Part shown: positions 2,828 to 64,000 of the stretch, piece after piece
Layout of the letters: each line of letters opens with the position of its first letter
Position numbering within the stretch: the first letter of the stretch is position 1
NCBI GenBank assembly: GCA_030390025.1
Contig: JASTWF010000277.1
Coordinates: 310,001 to 374,000, forward strand
Length of the DNA stretch: 64,000 bases
Source of the DNA: Squalus acanthias
Lineage: Eukaryota
Direction of reading: 5' to 3'
Notes under the pieces: generated by a model
What the model was told of the DNA's origin: nothing
Seen by the model: only the letters and a program-made list of their open reading frames with translations
The model's database searches: none
Translations under genes and position numbers: made by a program

Positions 2828-3547
2828 GGGCCCTATTTTCCGATCGGACGCTTCCCGCGTGCGGAGGCCTCCGATCTGGAGAAAATCTACTGACTTACCT
2901 GAGGGCTCCCGAGGCCCGGGCACTTCCGCTCCTGGGCCTCTCCACTCGAAATCTGCAGGACCCACGTATCCCAGAGGCGCATGCGGTTCGCAAGCGTTCC
3001 TGGGATCACGTAGGTCATGTGGAGCCAATCAAAGAAGAGAATCTCCCTTCATACACTTGACAGATAGACCTGTCAAATATATGAATGGAGATCACCCCAA
3101 AACACTTTAAAATATTAAATATATATATTTTTAACCTCATTTTTAAAATTAGTTGAAATTACAATAAATTAAATATTTTAAACAAAAATGTAATCTTTTG
3201 AAAAAAATAATTAAAGATTATTATGGGGCTAAAAATAAACTTACCTTTTTTGAAATATTTTTAAATGATAAATGAGTGAAAACAAATGTTTTTAACTTTT
3301 TTCAAATCTTACGCCTGCTTTTACCAGGTGTAAGATTTTTAAGGGCAGAGGTTCTCCAGAAAGCGAAACTATCCGCCCACAGAGGCCCTTCTCCAGGGAA
3401 GGCATCCGATCTGTCAAGAGCATTCTTGACAGAACGAAAATGCCAGTTTCAGCGTATGGGCTTCGCATGCCTGAAACCGGCATTTCCGATGTCCCCGCGG
3501 GTGTGTCCACAACGCGAACACACCCCTAGCAATCGGAATATCCGGCC
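2828..3547. mobile_element. Harbinger-type MITE (~720 bp)
   Basis: Terminal inverted repeats gggccctattttccgat / atcggaatatccggccc, GC-rich arms and an AT-rich centre; same architecture as 40494-41235. Confidence 0.7.
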
Positions 3548-38657: not shown

Positions 38658-38711
38658 TTGCGAAACCCGGGATTGAACCAGGGACTTTTAGATCTTCAGT
38701 CAAACGCACTC
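38658..38711 (-). pseudogene. tRNA-Phe 3' fragment
   Basis: gaaacccgggattgaaccagggacttttagatcttcagtc. Confidence 0.75.
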
Positions 38712-38714
38712 GGC

Positions 38715-39245
38715 ATATTTGTAGCCGGTCCGCCATGGCGGGTTGCAGCTCCCACAATGCAGCGCGGCAAGGAAAGGCCCCTATCTCTGTGACACTCTGG
38801 GAGCAGAGTTCGGACATGCACACCTCACCCACCCGATGAGCCGCCGCTTTCTCTCTGCGGCGCGGGACAAACTTTCAGTCTCTCGGTTCAGAGTGAGCGG
38901 TGATTTTGCTGGAAACTGACGTCACTTTTCTTTTTAATTGCGCGGTTTCATGGACGTAAAAAGCGCGCATGCGCAGTGATCTGGGTCACACCAAAATGGC
39001 GGTCGGACGGCCGGTGACGCTCAAATCCGCGATGACGTCAGAGGGCCGCTGACTGGCGGTTTGACCAGGGGCCGAGGGTCAGGGGTCAGGGGGCGGCTCC
39101 AGCCCCGGTCAGAGAGAGAGGGCGGGCGCTGAGATTGGAGCCAGCCGGGGGCAACCTGCATTTCCCCAGCGCCTTTCACAGCCTCAGCCCGGCCCCGAGC
39201 CTCACACACAATGGGGGGATGGGAAGGGAGCTCACTCCAGGAAAA
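38715..39245. promoter_or_regulatory. CpG-rich Pol II promoter-like patch
   Basis: ZNF143/Staf-like gcagctcccacaatgcagcgcg (~38745), CRE TGACGTCA at 38917 and 39033, NRF1 GCGCATGCGC at 38965, YY1 AAAATGGCGG at 38993, and high CpG density. Confidence 0.6.
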
Positions 39246-39250
39246 GCGGC

Positions 39251-39940
39251 AGGCACTGTGGGCACAGCGAGATCCCACACACAGCACTGTGGGCACAGCA
39301 AGATCCCACACACAGTACTGTGGGCACAGCAAGATCCCACACACTGCACTGTGGGCACAGCAAGATCCCACACACAGCACTGTGGGCACAGCAAGATCCC
39401 ACACACAGCACTGTGGACACAGCAAGATCCCACACACAGCACTGTGGACACAGCAAGATCCCACACACAGCACTGTGGACACAGCAAGATCCCACACACA
39501 GCACTGTGAGCACAGCAAGATACCAAATACTGCACTGTGGGCACAGCAAGATCCCACACACAGCACTGTGGACACAGCAAGATCCCACACACAGCACTGT
39601 GGGCACAGCAAGATCCCACACACAGCACTGTGGACACAGCAAGATCCCTCACACAGCACTGTGGGCACAGCAAGATCCCACACACAGCACTGGGGACACA
39701 GCAAGATCCCACACACAGCACTGTGGACACAGCAAGATCCCACACACAGCACTTTGGGCACAGCAAGATCCCACACACAGCACTGTGGACACAGCAAGAT
39801 CCCTCACACAGCACTGTGGGCACAGCAAGATCCCACACACAGCACTGGGGACACAGCAAGATCCCACACACAGCACTGTGGACACAGCAAGATCCCACAC
39901 ACAGCACTTTGGGCACAGCAAGATCCCACACACAGCACTG
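39251..39940. repeat. 31-bp minisatellite (~22 copies)
   Basis: Unit CACTGTGGGCACAGCAAGATCCCACACACAG. Confidence 0.95.
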
Positions 39941-39956
39941 ATCAAAAGACAAAAAT

Positions 39957-40490
39957 TCAAGGTTCGTTCCATCCCTGGCCATAGCCTTTATTTTGATGCA
40001 CTTCCCAAGTCCCTTCGTGTCTGGAGCGGAGCTCCCCGTCCCTTCCCCTGCGCATTGTACACAGCAGGTAGAGAACTATCCCGAGCTGGCAGACCAACAA
40101 AAGATGGGAAGCCATCCTGATCCAGGAAGGCACCTCTATATTCTCGAAAATATCCCACCAGGGTGGAACTACTATATCCAAAATCTCTGCCCTTATTTCA
40201 ACTGTTTTCTGTTCCAGGGTGTAGAAATGTTTTTGTGAAATCTCTACAGCTTTAAGTAGGATGGTAAGATGTTCGGGTAGAGGGGGAATTTTATATCCAA
40301 AGTAAGTCACATACTTTTGCAGGTTGGTGATGTTTTCTGTTACAGTGAGGTGAACAGTGGAGGGTTCAGGAATGGGGACAATCGTTCCTGGGCCACTTGA
40401 ACTTCTGCCTTTGTATAAAGCAGAAACTGCTGTCACTTACCGGACACCAGAAGTGTCCATGCTGGTAGTGGAACGCACCTGTGGTGACAC
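39957..40490 (-). pseudogene. Endogenous viral env/F-like gene, C-terminal segment (heptad, Trp motif, transmembrane, tail)
   Basis: CVTTGAFHYQHGHFWCPVSDSSFCF, frameshift(s), then IVPIPEPSTVHL...LEQKTVEIRAEILDI..PPWWDIF...SHLLLVCQLGIVLYLLC. Confidence 0.7.
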
Positions 40491-40493
40491 AGT

Positions 40494-41235
40494 GGCCCAG
40501 AAATTGATCTCGCTCTGTGCCCGCGGGGGTAAGGGTTTCCCGCGATCTCTCACCTGGCTTGTGCTTTTTCAGATCCAGCTCGCACGAACTTGATGTTCTA
40601 GAGATCAGCTGGGCAGTGCTTGCGTATCCCAGCGGCGTAGTGAATTCGTGCGAGCTGTGGGATCACGTGACTCAGTTAGAGCCAATGGCAGCACACCATC
40701 TCCCATTCATAAGTTTCACAGCACGGCAGTGAAATCTATGAATCTTACACCCCCCCAAAATAACAGCTAAACCTCAATTACATAAAAAAAAAACCATCAC
40801 ATTAATAAAATAAGTATAGTTAATTAAATTAACCATTTTAAATAAAAAATTAAATTTTTGAAAAAATTTAAAATCTTTTAAAAAGTTATAAAAATAAACT
40901 TACCTGTCTTTAAAGTCTCTAAAAAAGATATACCTGTTAAAAAAAATTCAAAAAAATACTTAATTCACTACTTACCTTCTTAAAAGTGGGTCTTACTCCT
41001 CCTTTTTATATTTCCAAAATCTTCCGTACTTACCTGCGCGTCCAAAGCATGAAGTGCACAGCGTGCGCGCAGCCTGTAGCACGCACGCGATGCACCGAGG
41101 TCCCGCCCCCTTTTCAGAAGAGCAATTGCCGGTTTTCACCGCATGCGCAGGGCATGCAGAAAACCGGCAATTGGAGTGGGAATACGCGAGAGTACGCAGT
41201 GCGTACTCTCGCGTCCCGGGATCAATTTTCGGCCC
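40494..41235. mobile_element. Harbinger-type MITE (742 bp) with 3-bp TSD
   Basis: TIRs ggcccagaaattgatctcg / cgggatcaattttcggccc with AGT on both sides (40491-93, 41236-38); removal restores the env frame. Confidence 0.85.
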
Positions 41236-41305
41236 AGTATGTTCCACCCCCTATATTTGCTACCTCTGGGGAAACATGGCCGTGTGCCATCACCTCCATG
41301 GTACA
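41236..41305 (-). pseudogene. Endogenous viral env/F-like gene, middle segment
   Basis: CTMEVMAHGHVSPEVANIGGGTY joins both neighbouring env segments in frame. Confidence 0.75.
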
Positions 41306-44300
41306 TAGAACATAGAACAGTACAGCACAGTACAGGCCCTTCGGCCCTCGATGTTGTGCCGAGCATTGTCCGAGACCAAGATCAAGCTATCACACTCCCT
41401 ATCACTCTGGTGTGCTCCATGTGCTTATCCAATAACCGCTTGAAAGTTCCTAAAGTGTCCGACTCCACTATCACAGCAGGCAGTCCATTCCACACCCCAA
41501 CCACTCTATGAGTAAAGAATCTACCTCGGACATCCCTTCTATATCTCACCCCATGCACCTTATAGTTATTCCCCCTTGTAACAGCTGCCTCTACCCGAGG
41601 AAATAGTCTCTGAACATCCACTCTATCTATCCCCCTCATCATCTTATAAACCTCTATTAAGTCGCCTCTCATCCTCCTCCGCTCTAAAGAGAAAAGCCCC
41701 AACTCCCTCAATCTTTCCTCATAAGACCTCCCCCCCAAACCAGGCAGCATCCTGGTAAATCTCCTTTGCACTCTTTCCAATGCTTCCACGTCCTTCCTAT
41801 AGTGAGGTGACCAGAACTGCACACAATATTCCAAATGTTGTCTCACCAAGGTCCTGTACAGTTGCAGCATAACCTCACGGTTCTTAAACTCAAACCCTCT
41901 GTTAATAAACGCCAACACACCATAGGCCTTCTTTACTGCTCTATCCACTTGAGTGGCAACCTTCAGAGATCTGTGGATATGAACCCCCAGATCCCTCTGC
42001 TCCTCCACGTTCCTCTGAACCCTGCCGTTGACCCTGTAATCCTTATTCAAATTTGCCCTACCAAAATGAATCACCTCGCACTTATCAGAGTTAAATTCCA
42101 TCTGCCATTTTTCGGCCCAGCTCTGCATCCTATCAATGTCTCTTTGCAGCCTACAACAGCCCTCCACCTCATCCACTGCTCCACCAATCTTGGTGTCATC
42201 AGCAAATTTACTGATCCACCCTTCAGTCCCCTCTTCCAAGTCATTGATAAAAATCACAAACAGCAGAGGACCCAGCACCGACCCCTGTGGCACACCGCTG
42301 GTAACTGGTCTCCAGTCCGAAAATGTTCCATCCACCACCACCCTCTGCCTTCTATGAGATAGCCAGTTACTTATCCAATCGGCCAAATTTCCCTCTATCC
42401 CACAACTCCGTACTTTCTTCATGAGCCGACCATGGGGTACATTATGAAACGCCTTACTAAAATCCATGTATACGACATCAACTGCTCTACCTTCATCTAC
42501 ACACTTAGTTACCTCCTCAAAGAATTCAATCAAATTTGTTAGGCAAGACTTACCCTTCACGAATCCGTGTTGACTATCCCTGATTAAGTTGCCTCTTTCC
42601 AAATGATCATAAATCCTATCCCTCAGGACCTTTTCCATTATCTTACCAACCACCGAAGTAAGACTAACCGGCCTATAATTACCAGGGTCATTCCTATTTC
42701 CTTTCTTGAAGAGAGGAACAACATTCGCCACTCTCCAGTCCTCTGGCACCATTCCCGTGGACAGTGAGGACCCAAAGATCAAAGCCAGAGGCTCTGCAAT
42801 CTCCTCCCTTGCCTCCCAAAGAATCCTAGGATATATCCCATCTGGCCCAGGGGACTTATCGACCCTCAGGTTCTTCAAAATTGCTAAAACATCTTCCCTC
42901 AGAACATCTACCACCTCCAGCCTATCCACCTTTATCACACTCTCATCCTCAAGAACATGGCCCCTCTCCTCGGTGAACACTGACGAAAAGTATTCATTCA
43001 TCACCTCTCCTATCTCTTCTGACTCCATGCACAAGTTCCCACTACTGTCCTTGACCGGCCCTACCCTCACCCTGGTCATTCTTTTATTTCTCACATAAGA
43101 GTAAAATGCCTTGGGGTTTTTCTTGATCCGACCCGCCAAGGACTTCTCATGCCCACTCCTAGCTCTCCTAAGCTCTTTTTTTAGCTCATTCCTTGCTACC
43201 TTGTACCCCTCAATCGACCCAACTGAACCTTGTTTTCTCATCCTTACATACGCTTCCTTTTTCCTCTTGACTAGACATTCAACCTCTTTTGTGAACCATG
43301 GTTCTCTCACTCGGCCATTTCCTCCCTGCCTGACAGGGACATACCTATCAAGGACACGCAGTAATTGCTCCATGAAAAAGCTCCACTTTTCGTTTGTTCC
43401 TTTCCCTGATAGTTTCTGTTCCCATCTTATACTCCCTAATTCTTGCCTAATCGCATCATAATTACCCCTCCCCCAAGTATAAACCCTGCCCTGCCGTATG
43501 GCCCTATCCCTCTCCATTGCAATAGTGAACGTTACCGAATTGTGGTCACTATCTCCAAAGTGCTCTCCCACATACAAATCAAACACTTGGCCCGGTTCAT
43601 TACCCAGTACCAAATCCAACGTGGCCCCAGCTCTTGTCGGCCTATCCACATATTGTGTCAGGAAACCCTCCTGCACACACTGTGCAAAAACTATCCCATC
43701 CGAACTGTTTGACCTATAAAGGTTCCAATCAATATTTGGAAAGTTGAAGTCACCCATGACAACTACTCTGTGACTTCCAAACCTAATCATAATCTGCTTT
43801 GCAATTTCTTCCTCCACATCTCTATTACTATTTGGGGGCCTGTAGAAAACTCCTAACAACGTGACCGCTCCTTTCCTATTTCTAACTTCAGCCCATATTA
43901 CCTCAGACGGCAGATCCCCCTCGAACTGCCTTTCTGCCGCTGTTAAACTATCCTTGATTAACAATGCTACTCCTCCACCTTTCTTACCAACTTCCCTACT
44001 CTTACTGAAACATCTGTACCCCGGAACTTCCAACAACCATTCCTGTCCCTGTTCTAACCATGTCTCCGTAATGGCCACCACATCGTAGTCCCAAGTACCA
44101 ATCCACGCTCCAAGTTCTCCTACCTTATTCCGGATGCTCCTTGCATTGAAGTAGACACACTTCAAGCCATCTTCCTGTCTGCCGGTACATTCCTGCGACG
44201 ATGATACCCTCCTCAGTACCTCCCTACACTCACCACTGGCTCCTGGACTACAGCCCTTTTTCCCATCCCGCTGACAAATTAGTTTAAACCCCCCCGAAGA

Positions 44301-44646
44301 GCCGTAGCAAATTTCCCTCCCAGGATATTGGTGCCCCTCTGGTTCAGGTGCAAACCGTCCTGTTTGTACAGGTCCCACCTTCCCCAGAATGTGCTCCAAT
44401 TATCCACATAACTGAAACCCTCCCCGCTATACCATCCCTGCAGCCACGTGTTTATCTGCACTCTCTCCCTGTTCCTCAACTCGCTAGCACGTGGCACCGG
44501 CAACAAACCAGAAATGACAACATGGTTTGTACTGGCTCTCAGCTTCCAACCTAGCTCCCTAAATTCCTGTTTTAAATCCCCGTCCCTTCTCCTACCTATG
44601 TCGTTGGTACCGATGTGTACCACGACTTGTGATTGTTCCCCCTCCC
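41306..44646 (-). mobile_element. Young CR1 LINE: 3' part of ORF1 (SGNH esterase) plus open ORF2
   Basis: ORF1 VVHIGTND...DGLHLN (44279-44646); ORF2 open to the stop at 41382; short 3'UTR and (ttctatg)n tail. Confidence 0.95.
41382..44278 (-). CDS. CR1 ORF2 endonuclease/reverse transcriptase; no stops or frameshifts (true start uncertain)
   Basis: YFNARSIRNK, AITETWL, MGDFN and SDH (APE); [22 protein letters not shown] and FADD (RT). Confidence 0.9.
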
Positions 44647-45370
44647 CAATTGATAGGTCGTGCGCCAGCAGCTCTGAACCCGCATTGCAGTTTCGAATAG
44701 GCGTTCAAGTGCTGGGGACACATTATTATGTGTGAACCCCGGCTCCGGCACCCGGACAGGTCAGTACCTGTCATGGCGTGCTCCCACTTTATGACATAAT
44801 GTGGGACCGCTGTAAAACGTATGTGTGCACCCCCTTGAATGACTCCAATGTTCTCCACCCTGTATACCGGTACGGGTCGGGCTGTCCCACTCATGACCGG
44901 CATTCTCACTACTATCCCCATGATAGTCTGATTTGAACGCCCACAATATATTGGGACAGGGTAGGCTTCAGAGGCTAGATGAAATTGGCATGGGCTCAGC
45001 GAATTACTAAACGGGTGGAGGGCTGCGAGGTGCTTGTTGCTGATCCAGGAGGGGACTAAACCTTGCTTTAAATCCTCCAGGTTGCTACGGCCCTCGCCCT
45101 GCAACCATGCCCCGTACAGCACACACACCTCATTCTGTGCAGCCTGATCCGATGCATTCCTATCCTCCCGTATGAGTGCATTTACTGTTTTGGCATGCCT
45201 TTCCAATTCTGCAATAATTTCCTTTAAATGAACCGACATAGCTTGGTCCTCATGTAGCTCTGAGCCTACCACTGTGTTCCCATCCTTCAGGATCTTCCTT
45301 AACTGGGTTTTTGAAACATTTATCTCTGTCTGTAATTCCATGTCAGCCAGTCTATTTATGACAGAGGACT
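44647..45370 (-). pseudogene. Endogenous viral env/F-like gene, ectodomain segment
   Basis: Open ~235 codons: a heptad-like helix, then VRMPVM..PVYRVENIG..VPHYV..DLSGC..IMCP..QCG..PIN, a cysteine spacing reminiscent of paramyxovirus F1. Confidence 0.7.
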
Positions 45371-45379
45371 AACCCATTT

Positions 45380-45537
45380 GTCTCATCCAAAAGACGGCAC
45401 CTGCGACAGTGCTGCACTCTCTCAGCACCACTCTGCAGTGTCAGCCTGGATTTTGTGCTTAACTCTCTGGAGGGGTGCTTGAACACACAACCTTTATGAT
45501 TCTAGAAGCGCGAGCGTGTTACCAATGAGCCAAGGCC
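45380..45537 (-). mobile_element. tRNA-derived SINE (DeuSINE/SacSINE1-like) 5' part
   Basis: ctcatccaaaagacggcacctgcgacagtgctgcact core plus a tRNA-like head. Confidence 0.65.
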
Positions 45538-46905: not shown

Positions 46906-47189
46906 TTTTTTTGTGATTCACCCATCCTGTCTCTCTCTCTCTCTCTCGCTCTCTCGGACTCTCGCTCTCTCTCTTTCTCCTTTCCAACCTCTCATGTTCT
47001 TTATCCCTCAGTTCTCGAGTACAAACAGTCTCTTTACCCCTTTTCTCCCTCCTCATCATTAAAAAGTGTTTCTCCCCATTGTCGCCCAAAGTCTCTGTTC
47101 TTCTCACTCTTGTATGCACACCTTCTCTCTCCCTCCCTCTCTCACTCGCTCCCTCCCTTTCCGACCCTCCCTCATTCCCATGCTCATTC

Positions 47190-48536
47190 TCACACACAGC
47201 CTCTGAGTCTCACTCTCTCTCACACTGTCTCTCTGAGTCTCACTCTCTCACACACCGTCTCTCTCAGACTCACTCTCTCACACTGTCTCTCTCAGACTCA
47301 CTCTCTCACACACTCTCTCTCTCTCAGACTCTCTCTCACATACTGTCTCTCTCAGACTCACTCTCTCACACTGTCTCTCTCAAACTCTCTCTCACACACT
47401 GTCTCTCTCAGACTGTCACACACTGTCTCTCTCAGACTCACTCTCACACACACTGTCTCTCTCAGACTCTAACACACTATCTCTCTCAGACTCTCTCACA
47501 TACTGTCTCTCTCAGACTCTCTCACACTGTCTCTCTCAGATTCTCTCTCAAACTGTCTCTCTCAGACTCACTCTCTCACACACATTGTCTCTCTCAGACT
47601 CTCTCTCACACACTGTCTCTCTCAGACTCTCACACTATCTCTCTCCGACTCACTCTCTCACACACTGTCTCTCTCAGAATCAGTATCTCACACTCTCTCT
47701 CAGATTCACGCTCACACTCTCAGATACACTCTCTCAAACACTGTCTCTCTCTCACACTCACTCTCTCACACACTGTCTCTCTCAGACTCACTCTCACACA
47801 CTCTCTCACACACTGTCTCTCTCAGACTCTCTCACACACTGTCTCTCTCAGACTCACTCTCTCACACACTGTCTCTCTCAGACTTTCTCTCACACTGTCT
47901 CTCTCAGACTCACTCTCTCTCACACATTGTCTCTCTCAGACTCACTCTCTCACATACTGTCTCTCTCAGACTCACTCTCTCACACTGTCTCTCTCAGACT
48001 CTCTCTCACACACTGTCTCTCTCAGACTCACTCTCTCACATACTGTCTCTCTCAGACTCACTCTCTCACAGTGTCTCTCTCAGACTCTCTCTCTCTCACA
48101 CTGTCTCTCTCAGACTCACTCTCTCACCCACCATCTCTCTCAGACTCAATATCACACACACTGTCTCTCAGTCTCTCTCAAACTGTCTCTCTCAGATTCA
48201 CTCTCTCACACTGTCTCTCTCAGACTCACTCTCTCACACACCGTCTCTCTCAGACTCACTCTCTCACACACTGTCTCTCTCAGACTCACACTCTCACATT
48301 GTCTCTCTCAGACTCTCTCTCTCACACACTGTCTCTCTCAGACTCACTCTCTCACCCACCATCTCTCTCACACTCACTCTCACACACACTGTCTCTCAGA
48401 CTCTCTCACACTGCTCTTTCAGACTCACTCTCTCACACTGTCTCTCTCAGACTCACTCTCCCACACACCATCTCTCACAGAATCACTCTCACACTGGCTC
48501 TCTCACACACTGTCTGTCTCAGACTCACCCTCGCAC
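47190..48536. repeat. CT/CA-rich satellite (~28-30 bp unit)
   Basis: CACACTGTCTCTCTCAGACTCACTCTCT repeated up to the gap. Confidence 0.95.
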
Positions 48537-49036
48537 NNNNNNNNNNNNNNNNNNNNNNNNNNNNNNNNNNNNNNNNNNNNNNNNNNNNNNNNNNNNNNNN
48601 NNNNNNNNNNNNNNNNNNNNNNNNNNNNNNNNNNNNNNNNNNNNNNNNNNNNNNNNNNNNNNNNNNNNNNNNNNNNNNNNNNNNNNNNNNNNNNNNNNNN
48701 NNNNNNNNNNNNNNNNNNNNNNNNNNNNNNNNNNNNNNNNNNNNNNNNNNNNNNNNNNNNNNNNNNNNNNNNNNNNNNNNNNNNNNNNNNNNNNNNNNNN
48801 NNNNNNNNNNNNNNNNNNNNNNNNNNNNNNNNNNNNNNNNNNNNNNNNNNNNNNNNNNNNNNNNNNNNNNNNNNNNNNNNNNNNNNNNNNNNNNNNNNNN
48901 NNNNNNNNNNNNNNNNNNNNNNNNNNNNNNNNNNNNNNNNNNNNNNNNNNNNNNNNNNNNNNNNNNNNNNNNNNNNNNNNNNNNNNNNNNNNNNNNNNNN
49001 NNNNNNNNNNNNNNNNNNNNNNNNNNNNNNNNNNNN
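48537..49036. other. Assembly gap (500 N)
   Basis: Run of N; the round length suggests a scaffolding placeholder. Confidence 0.99.
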
Positions 49037-52000
49037 CATTCACAGACTCCGAAAGTTCATTTCACAAATCCAGACAGCTCCATTCCTAGACACAGAGAGC
49101 TCCATTCACTGACCCAGGCAGCTCCATTCACAGACACAGACAGCTCCATTCAGAGACCCAGACAGCTCCATTTACAGACTCTCGCAGCTCCATTCACAGA
49201 CCCAGACAACTCCATTTACAGACTCTGACAGGTCAATTCACAGACACAGACAGCTCCATTCAGAGACCCAGACAGCTCCATTTACAGACTCAGACAGCTC
49301 CATTCACAGACCCAGACAGCTCATTCACAGACACAGATAGCTCCATTCACAGACCCAAAGAGCTCCAATCACAGACCCAGACAGCTCCATTCACAGACAC
49401 AGATAGCTCCATTCACAGACTCAGACAGCTCCATTCACAGACACAGATAGCTCCATTCACAGACTCAGACAGCTCAATTCACAGACCCAGACCGCTCCAT
49501 TCACAGACACAAACAGCTCCCTTCACAGACCAAGACAGCTCCATTCAAAGACCCAGATATCTCCATTCACAGACTCAGACAGCTCCATTCACAGACCCAG
49601 ACCGCTCCATTCAAAGACCCAGACAACTCCATTCAGAGACTGAGACAGCTCCATTTACAGACTCTGGCAGCTCCATTTACAGACCCAGACAGCTCCATTT
49701 ACAGACTCAGACAGCTCTATTCACAGACTCAAAAAGTTCATTTCACAGATCCAGACAGCTCCATTCACAGACCCAGACAGATCCATTCACAGACTCAGAC
49801 AGCTCCATTCACAGACCCAGACAACTCCATTCACAAACCCAGACAGCTCCATTTACAGACCAAGACAGCTGCATTTACAAACTCTGACAGCTCATTTCAC
49901 GGACACAGACAGCTCCATTCACAGACCCAGGCAGCTCCATTCACAGACACAGACAGCTCCATTCAGAGACCCAGACAGCTCCATTTACAGACTCTCGCTG
50001 CTCCATTCACAGACCCAGACAGCTCCATTTACAGACTCTGACAGCTCAATTCACAGACACAGACAGCTCCATTCAGAGACCCAGACAGCTCCATTTACCG
50101 ACTCTCGCAGCTCCATTCACAGACCCAGACAGCTCCATTCACAGACCCAGACAGCTCCATTTACAGACTCAGACAGTTCCATTCACAGACCCAGACAACT
50201 CCATTCACAAACCCAGGCAGCACCATTGAAAGACCCAGACAGCTCCATTCACAGACCCAGACAGTTTCTTTCACAGACCCAGACAGCTATATTCACAGAC
50301 CCAAACAGGTACATTTACAGACCCAGACAGCTCCATTCACTGACCCAGACAGCTCCAGTCACAGACCCAGAGAGCCCCATTTACATACCCAGACAGCTCC
50401 ATTCACAGACCAAGACAGCTCCATTCACAGACTCAGACAGCTCCATTCACAGACCCAGACAGCTGATTCAACAGACCCAGACAGCACATTTCACAGATCT
50501 AGACAGCTCCATTCAAAGACACAGACAGTTCATTTCATCGACCAAGACAGCTCCATTTACAGACCCAGACAGCTCCATTCACAGACTCCGAAAGTTCATT
50601 TCACAAATCCAGACAGCTCCATTCCTAGACACAGAGAGCTCCATTCACTGACCCAGGCAGCTCCATTCACAGACACAGACAGCTCCATTCAGAGACCCAG
50701 ACAGCTCCATTTACAGACTCTCGCAGCTCCATTCACAGACCCAGACAACTCCATTTACAGACTCTGACAGGTCAATTCACAGACACAGACAGCTCCATTC
50801 AGAGACCCAGACAGCTCCATTTACAGACTCAGACAGCTCCATTCACAGACCCAGACAGCTCATTCACAGACACAGATAGCTCCATTCACAGACCCAAAGA
50901 GCTCCAATCACAGACCCAGACAGCTCCATTCACAGACACAGATAGCTCCATTCACAGACTCAGACAGCTCCATTCACAGACACAGATAGCTCCATTCACA
51001 GACTCAGACAGCTCAATTCACAGACCCAGACCGCTCCATTCACAGACACAAACAGCTCCCTTCACAGACCAAGACAGCTCCATTCAAAGACCCAGATATC
51101 TCCATTCACAGACTCAGACAGCTCCATTCACAGACCCAGACCGCTCCATTCACAGACCCAGACAACTCCATTCACAGACTGAGACAGCTCCATTTACAGA
51201 CTCTGGCAGCTCCATTTACAGACCCAGACAGCTCCATTTACAGACTCAGACAGCTCTATTCACAGACCCAGACAACTGCATTTACAGACTCTGGCAGCTC
51301 AATTCACAGACACAGACAGCTCTATTCAGAGACCCAGACAGTTCCCTTTACAGACTCTGGCAGCTCAATTCACATACACAGTCAGCTCCATTCAGAGACC
51401 CAGACAGCTCCATTTACAGACTCACGCAGCTCCATTCACAGACCCAGACAGCTCCATTTACAGACTCTCGGAGCTCCATTCACAGACATAGACAGCTCCA
51501 TTCACAGACCCAGACAGCTCCATTCACAGACACAGACAGCTCCATTCACCGACTCAGACAGCTCCATTTCCAGACCCAGACAGCTCCATTTACAGACCCA
51601 GACAGCTCCATTCACAGATCAAGACAGTTCCATTCACAGACTCAGACAGCTTCATTAAAAGACCCAGACAGCACATTTCACAGATCCAGACAGCTCCATT
51701 CAAAGACACAGACAGCTCATTTCATCGACCAAGACAGCTCCATTTACTGACCCAGACAGCTCCATTGAAGATAGTTCTTCGACCTGAAAGGTAAACTCTG
51801 TTTCTATCTCCACGGATTGTGCCTGGCCTGCAGAGTTTTCCAGCGTTTTCTGTTGTTAGATTCATTCACAGATTCAGACAGCTCCATTCACAGACTCAGA
51901 AAGTTAATTTCATTTCAGAGAACTAGATAAAACCATTCACAAACAGACAGTTCCATTCACAGACCCAGACAGCTTAATTCACAGACTCCGAAAGTTCATT

Positions 52001-55000
52001 TCACAGATCCAGACAGCTCCATTCACAGACCAAGACAGATCCATTCACAGACTCAGCTCCATTCACAGACCCTGACAACTCCATTCACAAACCCAGACAG
52101 CTCCATTTACAGACCCAGACAGCTGCATTTACAGACATAGACAGCTCCATTCACAGACACAGACAGCTCCATTCATAGACCCAGACAGCTCCGTTTACAG
52201 ACTCTCGCAGCTCCATTCACAGACATAGACAGCTCCATTCACAGACCCAGACAGCTGAATTTACAGACTCAGACAGCTCCATTCACAGACCCAGACAACT
52301 CCATTCACAAACCCAGGCAGCTCCATTCAAAGACCAAGACAGCTCCTTTCACAGACCCAGACAGCTTCTTTCACAGACCCAGACAGCTCCATTCACAGAC
52401 CCAGACAGCTCCATTCACAGACCCAGACAGCTCCATTTACAGACCCAGACAGTTCCATTCACAGACTCAGACAGCTTCATTAAAAGACCCAGACAGCACA
52501 TTTCACAGATCCAGACAGCTCCATTCAAAGACACAGACAGCTCATTTCATCGACCAAACAGCTCCATTCACAGACCCAGACAGCTCCATTGACGATAGGC
52601 CTTCGACCGGAAACGTTAACTCTGTTTCTCTCTCCACGGATTGTGCCTGGCTGCAGAGTTTTCCAGCGTTTTCTGTTGTTAGATTCATTCACAGATTCAG
52701 ACAGCTCCATTTACAGACCCAGACAGTTCCATTCACAGACTCAGACAGCTTCATTAAAAGACCCAGACAGCACATTTCACAGATCCAGACAGCTCCATTC
52801 AAAGACACAGACAGCTCATTTCATCGACCAAAACAGCTCCATTCACAGACCCAGACAGCTCCATTGACGATAGGCCTTCGACCGGAAACGTTAACTCTGT
52901 TTCTCTCTCCACGGATTGTGCCTGGCCTGCAGAGTTTTCCAGCGTTTTCTGTTGTTAGATTCATTCACAGATTCAGACAGCTCCATTCACAGACTCAGAA
53001 ATTTCATTTCAGAGAACTAGATAAAACCATTCACAGACACAATCAGTTCCATTCACAGACCCAGACAGCTTAATTCACAGACTCCGAAAGTTCATTTCAC
53101 AGATCCAGACAGCTCCATTCACAGACCAAGACAGATCCATTCACAGACTCAGCTCCATTCACAGACCCAGACAACTCCATTCACAAACCCAGACAGCTCC
53201 ATTTACAGACCCAGACAGCTGCATTTACAGACATAGACAGCTCCATTCACAGACACAGACAGCTCCATTCAGAGACCCAGACAGCTCCGTTTACAGACTC
53301 TAGCAGCTCCATTCACAGACATAGACAGCTCCATTCACAGACCCAGACAGCTCAATTTACAGACTCAGACAGCTCCATTCACAGACCCAGACAACTCCAT
53401 TCACAAACCCAGGCAGCTCCATTCAAAGACCAAGACAGCTCCTTTCACAGACCAAGACAGCTCCTTTCACAGACCAAGACAGCTCCTTTCACAGACCCAG
53501 ACAGCTTCTTTCACAGACCCAGACAGCTTCATTCACAGACCCAGACAGCTCCATTCACAGACCCAGACAGCTCCATTCATGACACAGACAGCTCCATTCA
53601 CAGACCCATGCAGCTCCATTCACAGACCCAGACAGCTCCATTCAAAGACCAAGACAGCTCCTTTCACAGACCCAGACAGCTTCTTTCACAGACCCAGACA
53701 GCTTCATTCACAGACCCAGACAGCTCCATTCACAGACCCAGACAGCTCCATTCATGACACAGACAGCTCCATTCACAGACCCATGCAGCTCCATTCACAG
53801 ACCCAGACAGCTCCATTCACAGACCCAGACAGCTCCATTCACGATAGGTCTTCGACCTGAAACGTTAACTCTGTTTCTCTCTCCACGGATTGTGCCTGGC
53901 CTGCAGAGTTTTCCAGCGTTTTCTGTTGTTAGATTCATTCACAGACTCAGACAGCTCCATTCACAGACCCAGACAACTCCATTCACAGACTGAGACAGCT
54001 CCATTTACAGACTCTGGCAGCTCCATTAACAGACACAGACAGCTCCATTTACAGACCCAGACAGCTCCATTTACAGACTCAGACAGCTCTATTCACAGAC
54101 CCAGACAACTGCATTTACAGACTCTGGCAGCTCAATTCACAGACACAGACAGCTCTATTCAGAGACCCAGACAGTTCCCTTTACAGACTCTGGCAGCTCA
54201 ATTCACATACACAGTCAGCTCCATTCAGAGACCCAGACAGCTCCATTTACAGACTCACGCAGCTCCATTCACAGACCCAGACAGCTCCATTTACAGACCC
54301 AGACAGCTCCATTCACAGATCAAGACAGTTCCATTCACAGACTCAGACAGCTTCATTAAAAGACCCAGACAGCACATTTCACAGATCCAGACAGCTCCAT
54401 TCAAAGACACAGACAGCTCATTTCATCGACCAAGACAGCTCCATTTACTGACCCAGACAGCTCCATTGAAGATAGTTCTTCGACCTGAATGGTAAACTCT
54501 GTTTCTATCTCCACGGATTGTGCCTGGCCTGCAGAGTTTTCCAGCGTTTTCTGTTGTTAGATTCATTCACAGATTCAGACAGCTCCATTCACAGACTCAG
54601 AAATTTCATTTCAGAGAACTAGATAAAACCATTCACAAACAGACAGTTCCATTCACAGACCCAGACAGCTTAATTCACAGACTCCGAAAGTTCATTTCAC
54701 AGATCCAGACAGCTCCATTCACAGACCAAGACAGATCCATTCACAGACTCAGCTCCATTCACAGAACCTGACAACTCCATTCACAAACCCAGACAGCTCC
54801 ATTTACAGACCCAGACAGCTGCATTTACAGACATAGACAGCTCCATTCACAGACACAGACAGCTCCATTCATAGACCCAGACAGCTCCGTTTACAGACTC
54901 TCGCAGCTCCATTCACAGACATAGACAGCTCCATTCACAGACCCAGACAGCTGAATTTACAGACTCAGACAGCTCCATTCACAGACCCAGACAACTCCAT

Positions 55001-58000
55001 TCACAAACCCAGGCAGCTCCATTCAAAGACCAAGACAGCTCCTTTCACAGACCCAGACAGCTTCTTTCACAGACCCAGACAGCTCCATTCACAGACCCAG
55101 ACAGCTCCATTCACAGACCCAGACAGCTCCATTCATGACACAGACAGCTCCATTCACAGACCCATGCAGCTCCATTCACAGACCCAGACAGCTCCATTCA
55201 CAGACTCAGACAGCTCCATTTCCAGACCCAGACAGCTCCATTTACAGACCCAGACAGTTCCATTCACAGACTCAGACAGCTTCATTAAAAGACCCAGATA
55301 GCACATTTCACAGATCCAGACAGCTCCATTCAAAGACACAGACAGCTCATTTCATCGACCAAAACAGCTCCATTTACAGACCCAGACAGCTCCATTGACG
55401 ATAGGCCTTCGACCGGAAACGTTAACTCTGTTTCTCTCTCCACGGATTGTGCCTGGCCTGCAGAGTTTTCCAGCGTTTTCTGTTGTTAGATTCATTCACA
55501 GATTCAGACAGCTCCATTCACAGACTCAGAAATTTCATTTCAGAGAACTAGATAAAACCATTCACAGACACAGACAGTTCCATTCACAGACCCAGACAGC
55601 TTAATTCACAGACTCCGAAAGTTCATTTCACAGATCCAGACAGCTCCATTCACAGACCAAGACAGATCCATTCACAGACTCAGCTCCATTCACAGACCCA
55701 GACAACTCCATTCACAAACCCAGACAGCTCCATTTACAGACCCAGACAGCTGCATTTACAGACATAGACAGCTCCATTCACAGACACAGACAGCTCCATT
55801 CAGAGACCCAGACAGCTCCGTTTACAGACTCTAGCAGCTCCATTCACAGACATAGACAGCTCCATTCACAGACCCAGACAGCTCAATTTACAGACTCAGA
55901 CAGCTCCATTCACAGACCCAGACAACTCCATTCACAAACCCAGGCAGCTCCATTCAAAGACCAAGACAGCTCCTTTCACAGACCCAGACAGCTTCTTTCA
56001 CAGACCCAGACAGCTTCATTCACAGACCCAGACAGCTCCATTCACAGACCCAGACAGCTCCATTCATGACACAGACAGCTCCATTCACAGACCCATGCAG
56101 CTCCATTCACAGACCCAGACAGCTCCATTCACAGACTCGGACAGCTCAATTCACAGACCCAGGCAGCTCCATTCACAGACTCAGAATGTTCATTTCACAG
56201 AACCAGACAGATCATTTCACAGACCCAGATAGCTCATTTCACAGACCCAGACAGCTCCATTCACAGACGCATTCACTGACCAAGACAGCTCCTTCCACAG
56301 ACGCAGACAGTTCCATTCACAGACCAAGACAGCTCCATTCACAGACGCCGAAAGATCATTTCACAGATCCAGACAGCTCCATTCACAGACCCAGACAGAT
56401 CCATTGACATACTCAGACAGATCCATTGACAGACTCAGACAGATCCATTCACAGAGCCAGACAGCTCCATTCAGAGACTCAGACAGCTCCATTCACAGAC
56501 CCAGACAGCTCCAGTCACAGACCCAGACAGCTCCATTCACCAACCCAGACAGCTCCATTCACAGACCCAGACAGCTCCAGTCACAGACCCAGACAGCTCC
56601 AATCACAGACCGAGACATCTCCATTCACAGATCCAGACATCACCATTCACAGATCAGACAACTCATTTCACAGACTCAGACAGCTTCAATCACAGACCCA
56701 GACAACTCCATTCACAGACTCAGACAGTTCCATTCACAGACCCAGACAGCACATTTCACAGATCCAGACAGCTCCATTCACAGATTCAGACAGCTCATTT
56801 CACAGATTCAGACAGCTCATTTCACAGACCCAGACAGCTCCATTCACAGACACAGGCAGTTCCATTCACAGGCCCAGACAGCTCCTTTCACTGACACAGA
56901 CAGCACATTTCACAGACCCAGACAACTTATTAATAGACACAGACAGCTCTATTCACAGACTCAGACAGCTCAATTCACAGACCCAGACAGCACCATTCAC
57001 AGACCCAGACAGCTCCATTCAGAGTCCCAGACTGCTCAATTCACAGACCCAGACAGCACCATTCACAGACCCAGACAGCTCCATTCACAGACCCAGAGAG
57101 CTCCATTTACAGACTCAGACAGCTCCATTCACAGACCCAGACAGCTCAATTCACAGACACAGACAGATCCATTCACAGACCGAGACAGCTCCATTTGCAG
57201 ACTCAGACAGCTCCATTCACAGACTCAGACAGCTCCATTCACAGAAACAGACAGCTCCATTCACAGTCTCAGAAAGCTAATTTCACAGACCCAGACAGCT
57301 GCATTCACAGACTCAGACAGCTCCATTCACAGTCTCCGAAACTTAATTTCACAGATCCAGACAGCTCCATTCACAGATCCAGACAGATCCATTCACAGAC
57401 CCAGACTGCTACATTCAGAGAAACAGACAGCAACATTCACAGACATGGAAAGCTGATTTCAAAAACACAGACAGCTCATTTCACAAACTCAGAAAGTTCA
57501 TTTAACAGACCCAGACAGCTCCATTCATGACACAGACAATTAATTTCACAGACCTGTACAGCTCCAATCGGAGACTCAGTCATCTAAATTCACAGACCCA
57601 GTCATCTCCATTCACAGACCCAGACAGCTCCATTCACAGACCCAGACAGTTCCATTCACAGACTCAGAATGTTCATTTCACAGAACCAGACAGATAATTT
57701 CACAGACCCAGACAGCTCATTTCACAGACCCAGACAGCTCCATTCACAGACTCTGACAGCTCCATTCACAGACCCAGACAGCTCATTTCACAGACCCAGA
57801 CAGCTCATTTCACAGACCCACGCAGCTCCATTCAAAGACCCAGACAGCTCCATTCACAGATTCAGACAGCTCAATTCACAGACCCAGACAGCTCCATTCA
57901 CAGACCCAGACAGCTCCATTCACAGACTCAGACAGCTCAATTCACAGACCCAGGCAGCTCCATTCACAGACCCAGACAGCTCCATTCACAGACCCAGACA

Positions 58001-58350
58001 GCTCCATTCACAGACCCAGACAGCTCCATTCACAGACCCAGACAGCTCCATTCACAGACCCAGACAGCTCCATTCACAGACCCAGGCAGCTCCATTTTCA
58101 GACCCAGACAGCTCCATTCACAGACCCAGACAGCTCCATTCACAGACCCAGACAGCTCCATTCACAGACCCAGACAGCTCCATTCACAGACCCAGACAGC
58201 TCCATTCACAGACCCAGACAGCTCCATTCACAGACCCAGACTGCTCCATTCACAGACCCAGACAAATCCATTCACAGACTCAGACAGCAACATTCACCGA
58301 CATTGAAAGCTGATCACAAAAACACAGACAGCTCATTTCCCAAATTCATT
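49037..58350. repeat. 22-bp satellite array (~9.3 kb) with higher-order structure
   Basis: Unit CACAGACCCAGACAGCTCCATT; the variant block at 49037 recurs at 50577; six embedded ~95-bp non-satellite blocks. Confidence 0.97.
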
Positions 58351-58359
58351 AAGTTCATT

Positions 58360-58825
58360 TCAACAAAAATCATATTTTTAAAATAACTATAAATTCCATA
58401 AAATCACTATTTTAAACAATAATTTGAACATTTCAAAAAAATAATTACAGTTTTTAACGTGGCTAAAAATAAACTTAGCTTTCTTTAAAGTATTTAAAAA
58501 TAATAAATCTGTGGAAAAAATGTTTTAATTTTACTTAATTCACCACTTATCTTGTTAAAAGCAGGCCTTGCGCCTGCTTTTTGCCGCGCAGCTGCCAGGG
58601 ACCTACCCGCAGGGAGAAACCTGTAAAAAAAAGCCGAGTGTTCGCTACGTTCGCGCTGCCTCTCCCGGCCCACGCGGTTGACCCGCGAACCACTTCCTTC
58701 ACAAGACCGGAAGTTCCGGTTTCCCGTGCATGCGCAGTGCATGCGCGAAACCGGCACTTCCGGTGCCCCTACGGGTGAGTACACAGCGTGTACTCACCCG
58801 TGGGGACCCAAATTTCTGGGCTTTA
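58360..58825. mobile_element. Right half of a Harbinger-type MITE
   Basis: AT-rich centre, aaaaataaactta motif and a GC-rich arm like those at 3230-3547 and 40890-41235. Confidence 0.65.
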
Positions 58826-58849
58826 GTGTACAGTGCACAGTCCTCGACT

Positions 58850-59762
58850 CCATATCACACTTGGTGTACTTTGCACAGTTCAGGTCTCCATGTCACACTT
58901 AGAGTACTGTGCACAGATCTGGTTTCCATATCACACTTAATGTACTGTGCACAAATCTGGTCTCCATATCACACTTAGATTACTGTGCAAAGTTATTGTC
59001 TCCATATCACACTTAAAATACTGAGCACAAATCTGGTCTCCATATCAAACTTAGATTACTGTGCACAATTCTGGTCGTCATATCACACTTAGAGTACTGT
59101 GCACAGTTCTGGTCTCCATATCACACTTAGAATACTGTACATGATCCTGGTCTCCACATCACACTTCGAATACTGTGCAGAGTCCTGGTCTCCATATCAC
59201 ACTTCGAATACTGTGCAGAGTCCTGGTCTCCATATCACACTTCGAATACTGTGCAGAGTCCTGGTCTCCATATCACACTGTGAATACTGTGCAGAGTCCT
59301 GGTCTCCATATCACACTTCGAATACTGTGCAGAGTCCTGGTCTACATATCACACTTCGAATACTGTTCAGAGTCCTGGTCTCCATATCACACTTCGAATA
59401 CTGTGCAGAGTCCTGGTCTCCATATCACACTGTGAATACTGTGCAGTGTCCTGGTCTCCATATCACACTTAGAATACTGTGCAGAATCCTGGTCTCCATA
59501 TCACACTTAGAATACTGTGCAGAGTCCTAGTGTCTAAATCACACTTAGAATACTGTGCAGAGTCCTGGTCTCCAAATCACACTTAGAATACTGTGCAGAG
59601 TCCTGCTCTCGATATCTCACTTAGAATACTGTGCAGAGTCGTGGTCTCCATATCACACTTAGAATACTGTGCAGAGTCCTGGTCTCCATATCATACTTAG
59701 AATACTGTGCAGAATCCTTGTCTCCATTTCACACTTAGAATACTGTGCAGTGTTCTGGTCTC
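58850..59762. repeat. 38-bp minisatellite derived from CR1 ORF2 (~24 copies)
   Basis: Unit CACACTTAGAATACTGTGCAGAGTCCTGGTCTCCATAT; it translates as HLEYCAESWSPY versus CR1 HLEYCAQFWSPY. Confidence 0.9.
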
Positions 59763-60186: not shown

Positions 60187-60489
60187 GTAAGAGACACAGA
60201 CCCTGGAAGTTCCAGACCGTGTCGAGTGCCGATCTGAGTCAGGATTTTATTGGAATAAGTCCAAAGCACAGCACACTGTCTAATTTACAATCAAGCAGTT
60301 TGGTGTTTTCTTCCCATGTAAGTGGGATTCCTCACGGTTCAGAATTCCAAAACTTCGCCTGTAAAGAAGGATTCCCTCAGCTGTAATGTCAGACAGTGAG
60401 TGAGGTGTCCTTGGTCTCAGGTTTATCCTGAGTTCGCTCTGTTTCTAATGGACAATCGGGCAGTTTGTGTGTCCTTCCGAAGTAAAAGA

Positions 60490-60906
60490 AAATAAAAAAT
60501 TGGCTTTATACAGCGCCTTTTGGGGCCTCAGACTGTCCGAAACCGCTTGACAGACAATGAAATACGTTTGAAATGTGGCCACTTTTGTAATGTTCAAAAA
60601 GCGGCAGACAATTTGTGCACAGCAAGCTCCCATAAACAGCAATGTGATAATGACCAGATTTTTTTTTGTTTAGTGATATTTGTTGAGGAGTAAATATTTG
60701 CCACGGCACCGGGAGAACTCCCTGCTTTTCTTTGAAATGGTGCCATGGGATCTCTTAAGTCCAATTGAGAGGGCAGACGGTTCCTCGGTTTAACACCTCA
60801 TCCGAAAGACAGGCTCGCCCTCCTTCAGTACTGCATTGGGACTGTCAGCTTCCATTCTGTGTTCAAGTTTCTGGAGGAGGACTTGAACCCACCATCTTCT
60901 GAATTA
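60490..60906 (-). mobile_element. tRNA-derived SINE (DeuSINE/SacSINE1-like)
   Basis: B-box-like gacttgaaccc head, ctcatccgaaagac core and tttatacagcgccttt tail. Confidence 0.7.
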
Positions 60907-61109
60907 GGATTCCTCACGGTTCAGGATGTATTAACCTCGCCAAAGAAGGTTTCCCTCTGCTATGATGTCAGACAGTGAGTGAGGTGTCCTTGGGCTCAGG
61001 TTTACCCTGAGTTGGCAGATCATTTCCGAGCGGCAGTAGGTGTCTGGAGGCCTTTACTGGTAACTGTCCATGTACCCACTGCTAGAAAGGACATCTACCC
61101 TATTTAGAG

Positions 61110-63064: not shown

Positions 63065-64000
63065 AGTACTCCCAACCAGAGAGAGAGAAAAGAGCAATAG
63101 TTAACTCACTTTACCCCTCTCCAAAACCAGAGAGAGGGGAAAGGGCAATTGTTAATTCACTGTACCCCCACTCCCCACCAGAGAGAGAGAAAAGAGCAAT
63201 AGTTAACTCACTTTACGCCTCTCCAAAACCAGAGAGAGGGGAAAGGGCAATTGTTAACTCACTGTACCCCCACTCCCCACCAGAGAGAGGGGAAAGGACA
63301 ATTGTTAACACACTGTACAACCACTCCCCACCAGAGAGAGAGAAAAGAGCAATAGTTAACTCACTTTACCCCTCTCCAAAACCAGAGAGAGGGGAAAGGG
63401 CAATAGTTAACTCACTGTACCCCCACTCCCCCATCAGAGAGAGGGGAAAGGGCAATTGTTAACTCACTGTACCCCCACTCCCCACCAGAGAGAGAGAAAA
63501 GAGCAATTGTTAACACATTGTACCCACACTCCCCCATCAGAGAGAGGGGAAAGGGCAATTGTTAACCCACTGTACCCACACTCCCCCACCCGAGAGAGGG
63601 GAAAGGGCAATTGTTAACACATTGTACCCCCACTCCCCCATCAGAGAGAGGGGAAAGGGCAATTGTTAACACATTGTACCCCCACTCCCCCACCAGAGAG
63701 AGGGGAAAGGGCCATTGTTAACTCACTGTACCACCACTCCCCACCAGAGAGAGGGGAAAGGGCAATTGTTAACTCACTGTACACACACTCCCCCATCAGA
63801 GAGAGGGGGAAGGGCAATTGTTAACCCACTGTACCCACACTCCCCCACCCGAGAGAGGGGAAAGGGCAATTGTTAACCCACTGTACCCTCACTCCGCCAC
63901 CAGAGAGAGGGGAAAGGGCAATTGTTAACTCACTGTACCCACACTCCCCCATCAGAGAGAGGGGAAAGGACAATTGTTAACCACTGTACCCCACTACCCC
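63065..64000. repeat. ~51-bp tandem repeat running off the window
   Basis: Unit CACTCCCCACCAGAGAGAGGGGAAAGGGCAATTGTTAACTCACTGTACCCC. Confidence 0.95.

Follow-up and report, generated by a model that had tools for sequence, protein, structure and literature searches.

A 64-kb window of the Squalus acanthias genome (contig JASTWF010000277.1) carries, on its minus strand at 45368-39957, the broken remains of a retroviral envelope (env) gene; all coordinates given here are positions in this window. We read the locus as a dead fragment of an env gene for a predicted class Ib fusogen, the class of the paramyxovirus and pneumovirus F proteins, whose parent virus was most likely related to snakehead retrovirus (SnRV; clade III, 'Huo'), and we give this reading as a whole a probability of about 0.68. 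What survives is a non-functional, 5'-truncated fragment of ~1.3 kb from an endogenous retrovirus (ERV) family of cartilaginous fishes. It is an inert fossil that cannot yield a working fusogen, because it has no signal peptide, no cleavage site and no continuous frame.

The gene is split by a CR1 long interspersed nuclear element (LINE) and a miniature inverted-repeat transposable element (MITE). Homologs were collected with env piece 1, which gave 19 matches at E<=0.001 among 1.84 billion representatives and 2 among 933 longer candidates, and each env piece was compared separately with these natural proteins (tblastn, homologs against the window). Piece 1 (45368-44649) corresponds to residues 46-284 of P0021 with 69% identity over 240 positions, and P0002 matches it at 80% (E 7e-130). 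Piece 2 (41305-41237) corresponds to residues 43-65 of P0013 (74% of 23), and P0021 picks up there from residue 285. P0013 continues with residues 65-94 at 40494-40408 (53% of 30) and residues 104-218 at 40382-40047 (56%); the match to piece 4 is extended to 40005 by P0015 (residues 391-500, 67% of 111), and P0016 (residues 598-705) also matches this piece. Overall, the four pieces are 55-80% identical to shark and ray proteins and lie in consecutive order. Because P0021, P0003 and P0013 run across both insertion sites without a gap, the four pieces are parts of one gene, and the three-segment env split by a CR1 and a MITE, proposed from the sequence in a first-pass annotation, is confirmed by this collinearity.

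The reading frame changes twice, in the order -2, -1, -3, between ~40420 and 40360: residues 18-43 of P0026 align in frame -2 and residues 41-62 in frame -1, and P0023 and P0025 show a like pattern. Frameshifts had been predicted near 40385-40410; the two changes are found there, in a zone that proved somewhat wider. The second heptad, the PPWW motif and the transmembrane helix that had been read from the sequence are all present, the hydrophobic helix lying at 40115-40059 (Kyte-Doolittle hydropathy 2.05) with a 33-residue tail. Those homologs that carry a species name belong to Pristiophorus japonicus, Scyliorhinus torazame and Rhinoraja longicauda. An env tree was built from 16 of 26 sequences, namely those with >=130 residues aligned to env piece 1, and places the window piece with P0002 and P0003 (support 98/92) inside a six-member group (96/97); its deeper branches are weak. 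Annotation of the family is poor, as the named homologs are labelled 'uncharacterized' or 'hypothetical' and two are fused into host gene models (Niban-like and cadherin-like). P0007, P0026 and P0015 include pieces of env; among these proteins are an uncharacterised skate model and host gene models of Niban-like and cadherin-related type, and the env pieces in them are probably mis-joined ERV exons, the alternative being real exonisation.

Both interruptions have the anatomy of known elements. The CR1 combines an esterase ORF1, an endonuclease-reverse transcriptase (RT) ORF2, a microsatellite 3' end and 5' truncation: the ORF1 remnant (44644-44282) encodes a GDSL esterase (Lipase_GDSL_2, E 4.6e-11), the minus-strand ORF2 frame at 41382-44399 is open (RVT_1, E 1e-36; Exo_endo_phos, E 1e-21), and the 3' end is a microsatellite tail. 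With 0 stops in 926 codons, its divergence under a simple neutral model is <2.3%, and this ORF2 shares only 65-71% identity with the window's other CR1 pieces; the insertion is young and from a recently active lineage. The MITE has terminal inverted repeats, a short flanking duplication, no coding capacity and dispersed copies. Its inverted arms (40487-40512 and 41217-41242) agree at 77% over 26 nt, and related copies at 58369-58801 and 3001-3485 are 66-73% identical, with strong internal palindromes. We take the element at 40494..41235 to be PIF/Harbinger-like.

Taking sequence and predicted models together, the env family is best described as a putative class Ib fusogen. A profile of 15 natural homologs retrieved the F0 protein of human parainfluenza virus 3 (hPIV3) as its top-ranked match (E 2e-4) over 221 collinear positions with the cysteines aligned, and gave an additional weak match at the cleavage site. 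The AlphaFold model of P0021 (mean predicted local distance difference test score, pLDDT, 54) contains a helix at residues 87-146. Foldseek returned 22 matches at E<=0.001 for this model and 70 for that of P0016, with a best E of ~1e-6, and for both models all of the matches listed were paramyxovirus or pneumovirus F proteins or foamy virus Env. The F-like ectodomain suggested by the first-pass annotation, and with it a similarity to class I F proteins, is recovered by both profile and Foldseek comparison. The order of parts also matches the class Ib design (PMC11468914) of F, spike S2 and foamy Env, namely cleavage site (in homologs), fusion peptide, first heptad, cysteine-rich beta domains, second heptad and membrane anchor. 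The coiled coils and the membrane helix are present in the window; only homologs have RxxR and the whole of the fusion peptide, and in those long enough to include it RxxR stands before the fusion peptide. As had been noted from the sequence, env has no gamma-type CX6CC or immunosuppressive-domain (ISD) pattern: neither occurs in any of 27 stored proteins, and the three minus frames of 39900-45400 hold one CX6CC only, inside the CR1, and none in env. By analogy with the known F and foamy Env structures, the protein would in the virus have been cleaved at RxxR and have inserted its fusion peptide into the target membrane, and the two heptads would have zipped into a six-helix bundle beside the C-terminal anchor, a fusion mechanism like that of paramyxovirus F.

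Several results weigh against this class assignment. The parallel with measles virus F1 drawn by the first-pass annotation falls where Pfam Fusion_gly matches piece 1, yet the match is weak, with E 0.11 for the piece and 0.02 for a sub-piece, both below the cut-off, and 0 of 20 homologs matched Fusion_gly at E<=1. A 16-sequence profile placed an F0 chain (8tvb) at rank 2 with E 0.032, and a syntaxin helix ranked above it. Both AlphaFold models are of low confidence, with the mean pLDDT of P0016 at 50. The F assignment stands on agreement between methods and not on a clean superposition, because Foldseek TM-scores are <=0.33 and VIA-align gave no match at Z >=8 (best F-like match: Z 6.5, root-mean-square deviation 17.9, 222 residues aligned). 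Among the 50 matches listed from a wide VIA-align search, unrelated coiled coils dominate and only one, a foamy Env, aligned over more than ~100 residues. A search of viral structures (BFVD) was weak and mixed: the top three matches, all glycoproteins, came from Sanxia water strider virus 4, Hubei myriapoda virus 8 and Canya virus, the Env proteins of feline foamy virus (FFV), walleye epidermal hyperplasia virus 1 and walleye dermal sarcoma virus (WDSV) appeared at E 0.02-0.08, and SnRV Env was not among the 50 matches listed. Single-sequence searches with env piece 1 gave 0 matches at E<=10 in the PDB and no usable match in the ESM Atlas, and a search with P0016 gave a chordate cluster (0.82) as its sole lead.

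The proteins P0005, P0015 and P0016 carry at least ~190 extra N-terminal residues ahead of the F-like core, which differ between sub-lineages and have no Pfam or PDB match; this extension is a candidate receptor-binding module. An immunoglobulin-like nature of the extension was considered for P0015 and P0016 and is not supported: neither an immunoglobulin-type Pfam family nor a PDB match turned up, and pLDDT there is mostly 22-30. P0016, with 739 residues and 24% identity to env piece 1, appears to be an env that is complete and open, from a distant sub-lineage.

The retroviral context comes from P0008, a predicted protein in which the end of an RT, an RNase H, an integrase zinc finger and a piece of env (61% identical to env piece 1) follow each other in proviral order. 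The pol part of P0008 retrieved a single protein, P0027, among 550 candidates, the two being 59-69% identical in three blocks. P0027 is a polyprotein of protease, RT, tether, RNase H and integrase with a dual RNase H (RT_RNaseH, E 9e-18; RNase_H, E 2e-18), a feature common to canonical retroviruses. In a PDB search its RT core scored 133 bits to foamy Pol, 99 to murine leukaemia virus (MLV) and 81 to Ty3, a ranking consistent with clade III; the top match we take to be foamy from its labels (protease family A9, 'Pr125Pol'). A hand count over three ungapped blocks (150 columns) gave 79 identities to SnRV, 63 to FFV, 61 to WDSV and 57 to Loki-Bsp, the four references being sequences printed in the supplement of PMC7947760. 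The RT of P0027 carries LPQG and KVNPKK; the Loki RTs seen there carry CPFG or TPFG, and VNPKK has 0 occurrences in the part of that supplement examined. The elephant shark has SnRV-like ERVs (PMC4422223), such elements have been found across vertebrates (PMC6001957, PMC12193657, PMC4977317), and clade III RT prevails in cartilaginous fish (PMC11089739).

A number of points count against an SnRV-related parent. The assignment to a lineage is indirect because the window has no pol, and the linkage of pol to env depends on the single gene model P0008 and its relative P0027; P0008 alone matches MLV RNase H only at E 0.5. The affinity of the RT is a hand count against four references and not a tree, and the likeness to SnRV is one of RT. 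Whole-Pol scores of P0027 do not discriminate (Ty3 232, MLV-type 230, foamy 195), and its tether and integrase also resemble Loki Pol by eye. Finally, the elephant shark element CmiERV scaffold 2 has an RT like that of P0027 but a gamma-type env, with an ISD-like stretch and CX6CC recognised by eye in the DNA printed in PMC4422223.

The first-pass annotation had ascribed the fossil to a loki-like retroelement, because Loki Env resembles F. Such an Env is not diagnostic of a lokiretrovirus, however, because foamy Env has the same fold (PMC11468914) and epsilonretroviral Env appears weakly in the fold search. A lokiretrovirus (lokiortervirus), whose env in this place would carry the range of that group into cartilaginous fishes, is now an unlikely source. 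The Loki Envs consulted do share, by eye, the order of a GPxxGxVL strand, RxKR, the fusion peptide and an I/VPxY/W motif together with the cysteine spacing, and both the dual RNase H of P0027 and its tether and integrase would suit such an origin. Against it stand the LPQG and KVNPKK motifs of the linked RT and its count of 57 of 150 to Loki-Bsp versus 79 to SnRV. In addition, the signal peptide of the Loki Envs seen directly precedes the GPxxGxVL strand, where P0005, P0015 and P0016 have their ~190+ extra residues, and these Loki Envs have no GxGxYCV..CP cysteines. Five chondrichthyan genomes were part of the published lokiretrovirus screen, whose abstract reports no find from that class; the five entries stand without the asterisk that we take to mean 'found' (PMC7947760). 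One of the five, Scyliorhinus torazame, has the env homolog P0004.

A deep clade III retrovirus unrelated to SnRV, whether foamy-like or other, is a rather unlikely parent as well. It would account for foamy Env (8rm1) being the best long VIA-align match among the matches listed, with a Foldseek E of 7e-6, and for foamy Pol being the best PDB match of the P0027 RT core, and PMC11468914 cites endogenous foamy viruses from cartilaginous fish. Yet SnRV RT, which lies outside the PDB matches, is the better relative by hand count (79 versus 63 of 150), and the receptor-binding module of foamy Env lies between the subunits (PMC11468914), whereas the homologs here are extended at the N-terminus, the most complete-looking having 739 aa.

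The env fragment lies within a short interspersed nuclear element (SINE), for which the window holds a second copy. The SINE 5' part (45502-45382) matches 60912-60797 of this copy in 81 of 108 bases (score 71; best of 200 shuffles, 39). Starting at the env stop, the 3' part matches 60661-60605 in 42 of 56 bases (score 51; 200 shuffles, 29), and the tail past a tandem array matches 60646-60511 in 88 of 124 bases (score 75; 200 shuffles, 34). The centre of the second copy, 60796-60662 (~135 bp), has no counterpart at the env locus. A SINE had been said to cut off the fusion-peptide end of env; it does border the 5' end, but its halves flank env on both sides. The array (39253-39940) has 22.2 copies of a 31-bp unit with 94% matches, and it is an amplified piece of the SINE 3' part. 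The SINE head has no match to a strict B-box pattern and no Rfam tRNA match. The family is probably of the SacSINE1/Deu type. A SacSINE1/DeuSINE-type family is described in sharks and skates (PMC5499810). On either side of the second copy stands a short repeat (60279-60437 and 60979-61016, 79-92% identity).

No remnant of pol or of 5' env was found in the window (best stray match E 0.04, in a low-complexity tract), and the 1.8 kb on the upstream side of env has no repeat in common with the 4 kb on its downstream side that could represent a pair of long terminal repeats (LTRs); in these searches, the earlier statement that env is accompanied by neither pol nor LTR holds. Across 420 codons of the env pieces there are 0 stops, a count that a simple neutral model equates with a divergence under ~5.5%, and the two SINE copies differ by 25-29%; env would on this basis be younger than the SINE. 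This comparison is weakened by a stop count that leaves out 60 bases around the frame changes and the 5' junction stop, and by its use of a single SINE pair, possibly of different subfamilies.

These observations suggest a history in which the old SINE was present first and the env fragment took the place of ~135 bp in its middle. One templated insertion into a break, accompanied by loss of target sequence, is favoured as simpler because it needs one event, against three for a provirus insertion reduced by two deletions, which is the less simple route to the same arrangement. Later, the MITE and the CR1 would have inserted, the two frame changes would have arisen and the piece of SINE at the 3' junction would have been amplified.

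Primate SVA elements offer an analogy for a composite retroposon. That the SINE head, env, array and SINE tail together form such a mobile unit, assembled by template switching, is nonetheless improbable. Both SINE ends lie in register around env, with an A-box in the head and the tandem array inside, and exchange of SINE modules by template switching is discussed in PMC5499810. However, env appears much younger than the SINE, the window has one copy only, a clear flanking duplication was not found (the longest shared words are 5 nt), and the homologs P0002, P0008, P0015 and P0024 continue into upstream env or pol. Still less probable is a domesticated env exon, syncytin-like or antiviral, kept open by selection until recently. 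The absence of stops in 420 env codons and a CpG-rich, promoter-like island ~0.7 kb past the env stop would fit it, but a recent insertion also accounts for the open frames, the island lies downstream of env on env's own strand, and the gene begins inside the fusion peptide, has no signal peptide or cleavage site and is broken by two frame changes and two insertions. An origin from a true paramyxovirus or pneumovirus, as an endogenised F gene, can be given hardly any weight: although the best structural and profile matches are Mononegavirales F proteins and a lone gene without LTR or pol resembles an mRNA-derived endogenous viral element (PMC11089739), identity to those F proteins is only 10-15% and the family, which has multiple copies in sharks and rays, is joined to retroviral pol in P0008, a link that largely refutes this origin.

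Table 1. Features of the env locus and of the reference SINE copy, as positions in the 64-kb window.
Feature	Positions	Strand	Content	Remarks
env piece 1	44647..45368	-	240 codons, no stop	second half of fusion peptide, long first heptad helix, beta-rich and cysteine-rich F1-like domains
CR1 LINE	41306..44646	-	5'-truncated inside ORF1, ORF2 open, microsatellite tail	between env pieces 1 and 2
env piece 2	41237..41305	-	23 codons	P0013 43-65 at 74%, P0003 195-217 at 70%
MITE	40494..41235	.	non-coding, terminal inverted repeats, 3-bp flanking duplication	between env pieces 2 and 3
env piece 3	40361..40491	-	cysteine-containing beta domain, two reading-frame changes	
env piece 4	39957..40382	-	second heptad, PWW motif, transmembrane helix, 33-residue tail	stop 39959-39957
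Junction sequence	45369..45381	-	neither SINE nor env	terminates in in-frame stop
SINE 5' part	45382..45536	-	old, tRNA-derived	5' limit approximate; A-box-like motif at 45532
SINE 3' part	39253..39957	-	resumes at env stop	includes 31-bp tandem array
Array end and SINE 3' tail	39167..39291	-	88/124 bases match 60646-60511	
Second SINE copy, uninterrupted	60511..60912	-	in-window reference for split SINE	

Elsewhere in the window, a cluster at 9135-36376, mostly on the minus strand, gives 11 Rfam tRNA matches (genes and tRNA-like sequences), and ARAGORN calls six tRNAs there: Lys, Trp, Ile, Leu, Val and a sixth, labelled Asp, whose anticodon is atc. A vault RNA match (27452-27541, minus strand; 51 bits, E 1.7e-8, above the Rfam gathering score) lies inside this cluster. 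The CpG-rich island at 38640-39250 has a GC content of 0.61 and an observed/expected CpG ratio of 0.83 and contains TGACGTCA twice and other promoter-like motifs. These are followed, at ~38710-38660, by a segment that is presumably the 3' part of a tRNA-Phe, called by neither Rfam nor ARAGORN. Large tandem arrays occupy 47188-58301, 58829-59762 and 63071-64000; one is TC-rich and stops at a run of N (~48540-49035), and the others are built on a 22-bp unit (~420 copies), a 38-bp unit and a 52-bp unit.

Taken by itself the locus is dead, and its interest lies at the level of the family; embedded in a SINE, it illustrates on a small scale that an env fragment can lie alone in a genome, with no LTRs around it. 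F-like envelopes of retroelements are already known from Loki, foamy viruses and invertebrate errantiviruses (bioRxiv 2023.10.26.564294; PMC12583693). Neither for SnRV-like nor for elasmobranch ERVs was a class Ib Env found described in the literature searched, which leaves most subscription papers outside it and includes the consulted portions of PMC11521997, PMC11089739, PMC9040795, PMC10699275, PMC8227577 and bioRxiv 2021.11.05.467493; clade III Pol with class Ib Env is apparently an undescribed ERV combination. For the elements from sharks and jawless fishes in PMC10699275, the sections consulted report that neither Gag nor Env domains were detected.

The shark env family matters for the question of where retroviral Env came from: four scenarios are listed in PMC7947760 with none excluded, class I fusogens have been divided into Ia and Ib of separate origin (PMC11468914), and an 'independent acquisition' scenario is favoured in PMC9040795. 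A broader reading, which we offer tentatively and consider possible rather than probable, is that sharks and rays carry a diverse, undescribed ERV family combining SnRV-type Pol with a class Ib Env that has an N-terminal receptor-binding extension as in coronavirus spike, and that, taken with foamy, Loki and possibly epsilon Env, the F-type fusogen was ancestral and was later replaced by class Ia. If true, a replacement of Env class would have been caught inside one Pol clade, as the chimaera ERV of the same Pol group has a gamma-type Env, and an ancestral F-type fusogen would contradict the scenario favoured in PMC9040795. With class Ib on SnRV-type Pol beside class Ia on the related chimaera Pol, a Pol tree combined with a map of Env classes would reveal the direction of replacement.

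Among known systems, the closest RT of the four references (79/150) is that of the SnRV-like ERVs (Huo, PMC6001957; CmiERV lineage I, PMC4422223); SnRV Env, for its part, has a 136-residue tail, against 33 residues in the window env. Loki Env likewise belongs to a retroelement and has an RxKR site, a fusion peptide, a coiled coil, a transmembrane helix and weak PF00523 similarity (PMC7947760; PMC9040795), and by eye the shark family appears distantly homologous to it. Identity is, however, ~20% by eye in the best block, the shark family adds cysteines, the PWW motif and the N-terminal extension, the RT linked to it is not Loki-like, and lokiretroviruses are unreported from cartilaginous fishes in the sources consulted. 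The errantivirus F-type ENV of invertebrates is also an F-like envelope on an LTR element, but on one with Ty3/gypsy Pol, and its authors state that they did not find intact homologous elements in vertebrates (bioRxiv 2023.10.26.564294). Foamy Env (PMC11468914; PDB 8rm1) is a retroviral Env with a paramyxovirus/pneumovirus F core, matched here at Foldseek E values of 7e-6 and 1.4e-4; it differs in its N-terminal membrane-spanning leader and inserted receptor-binding domain, the shark family being shorter and extended at the N-terminus. The F proteins of paramyxoviruses and pneumoviruses (hPIV3, respiratory syncytial virus, human metapneumovirus, measles virus) give the best profile and fold matches, with a collinear cysteine-rich region and two heptads, at an identity of 10-15%, whereas the shark env stands in a retroviral context.

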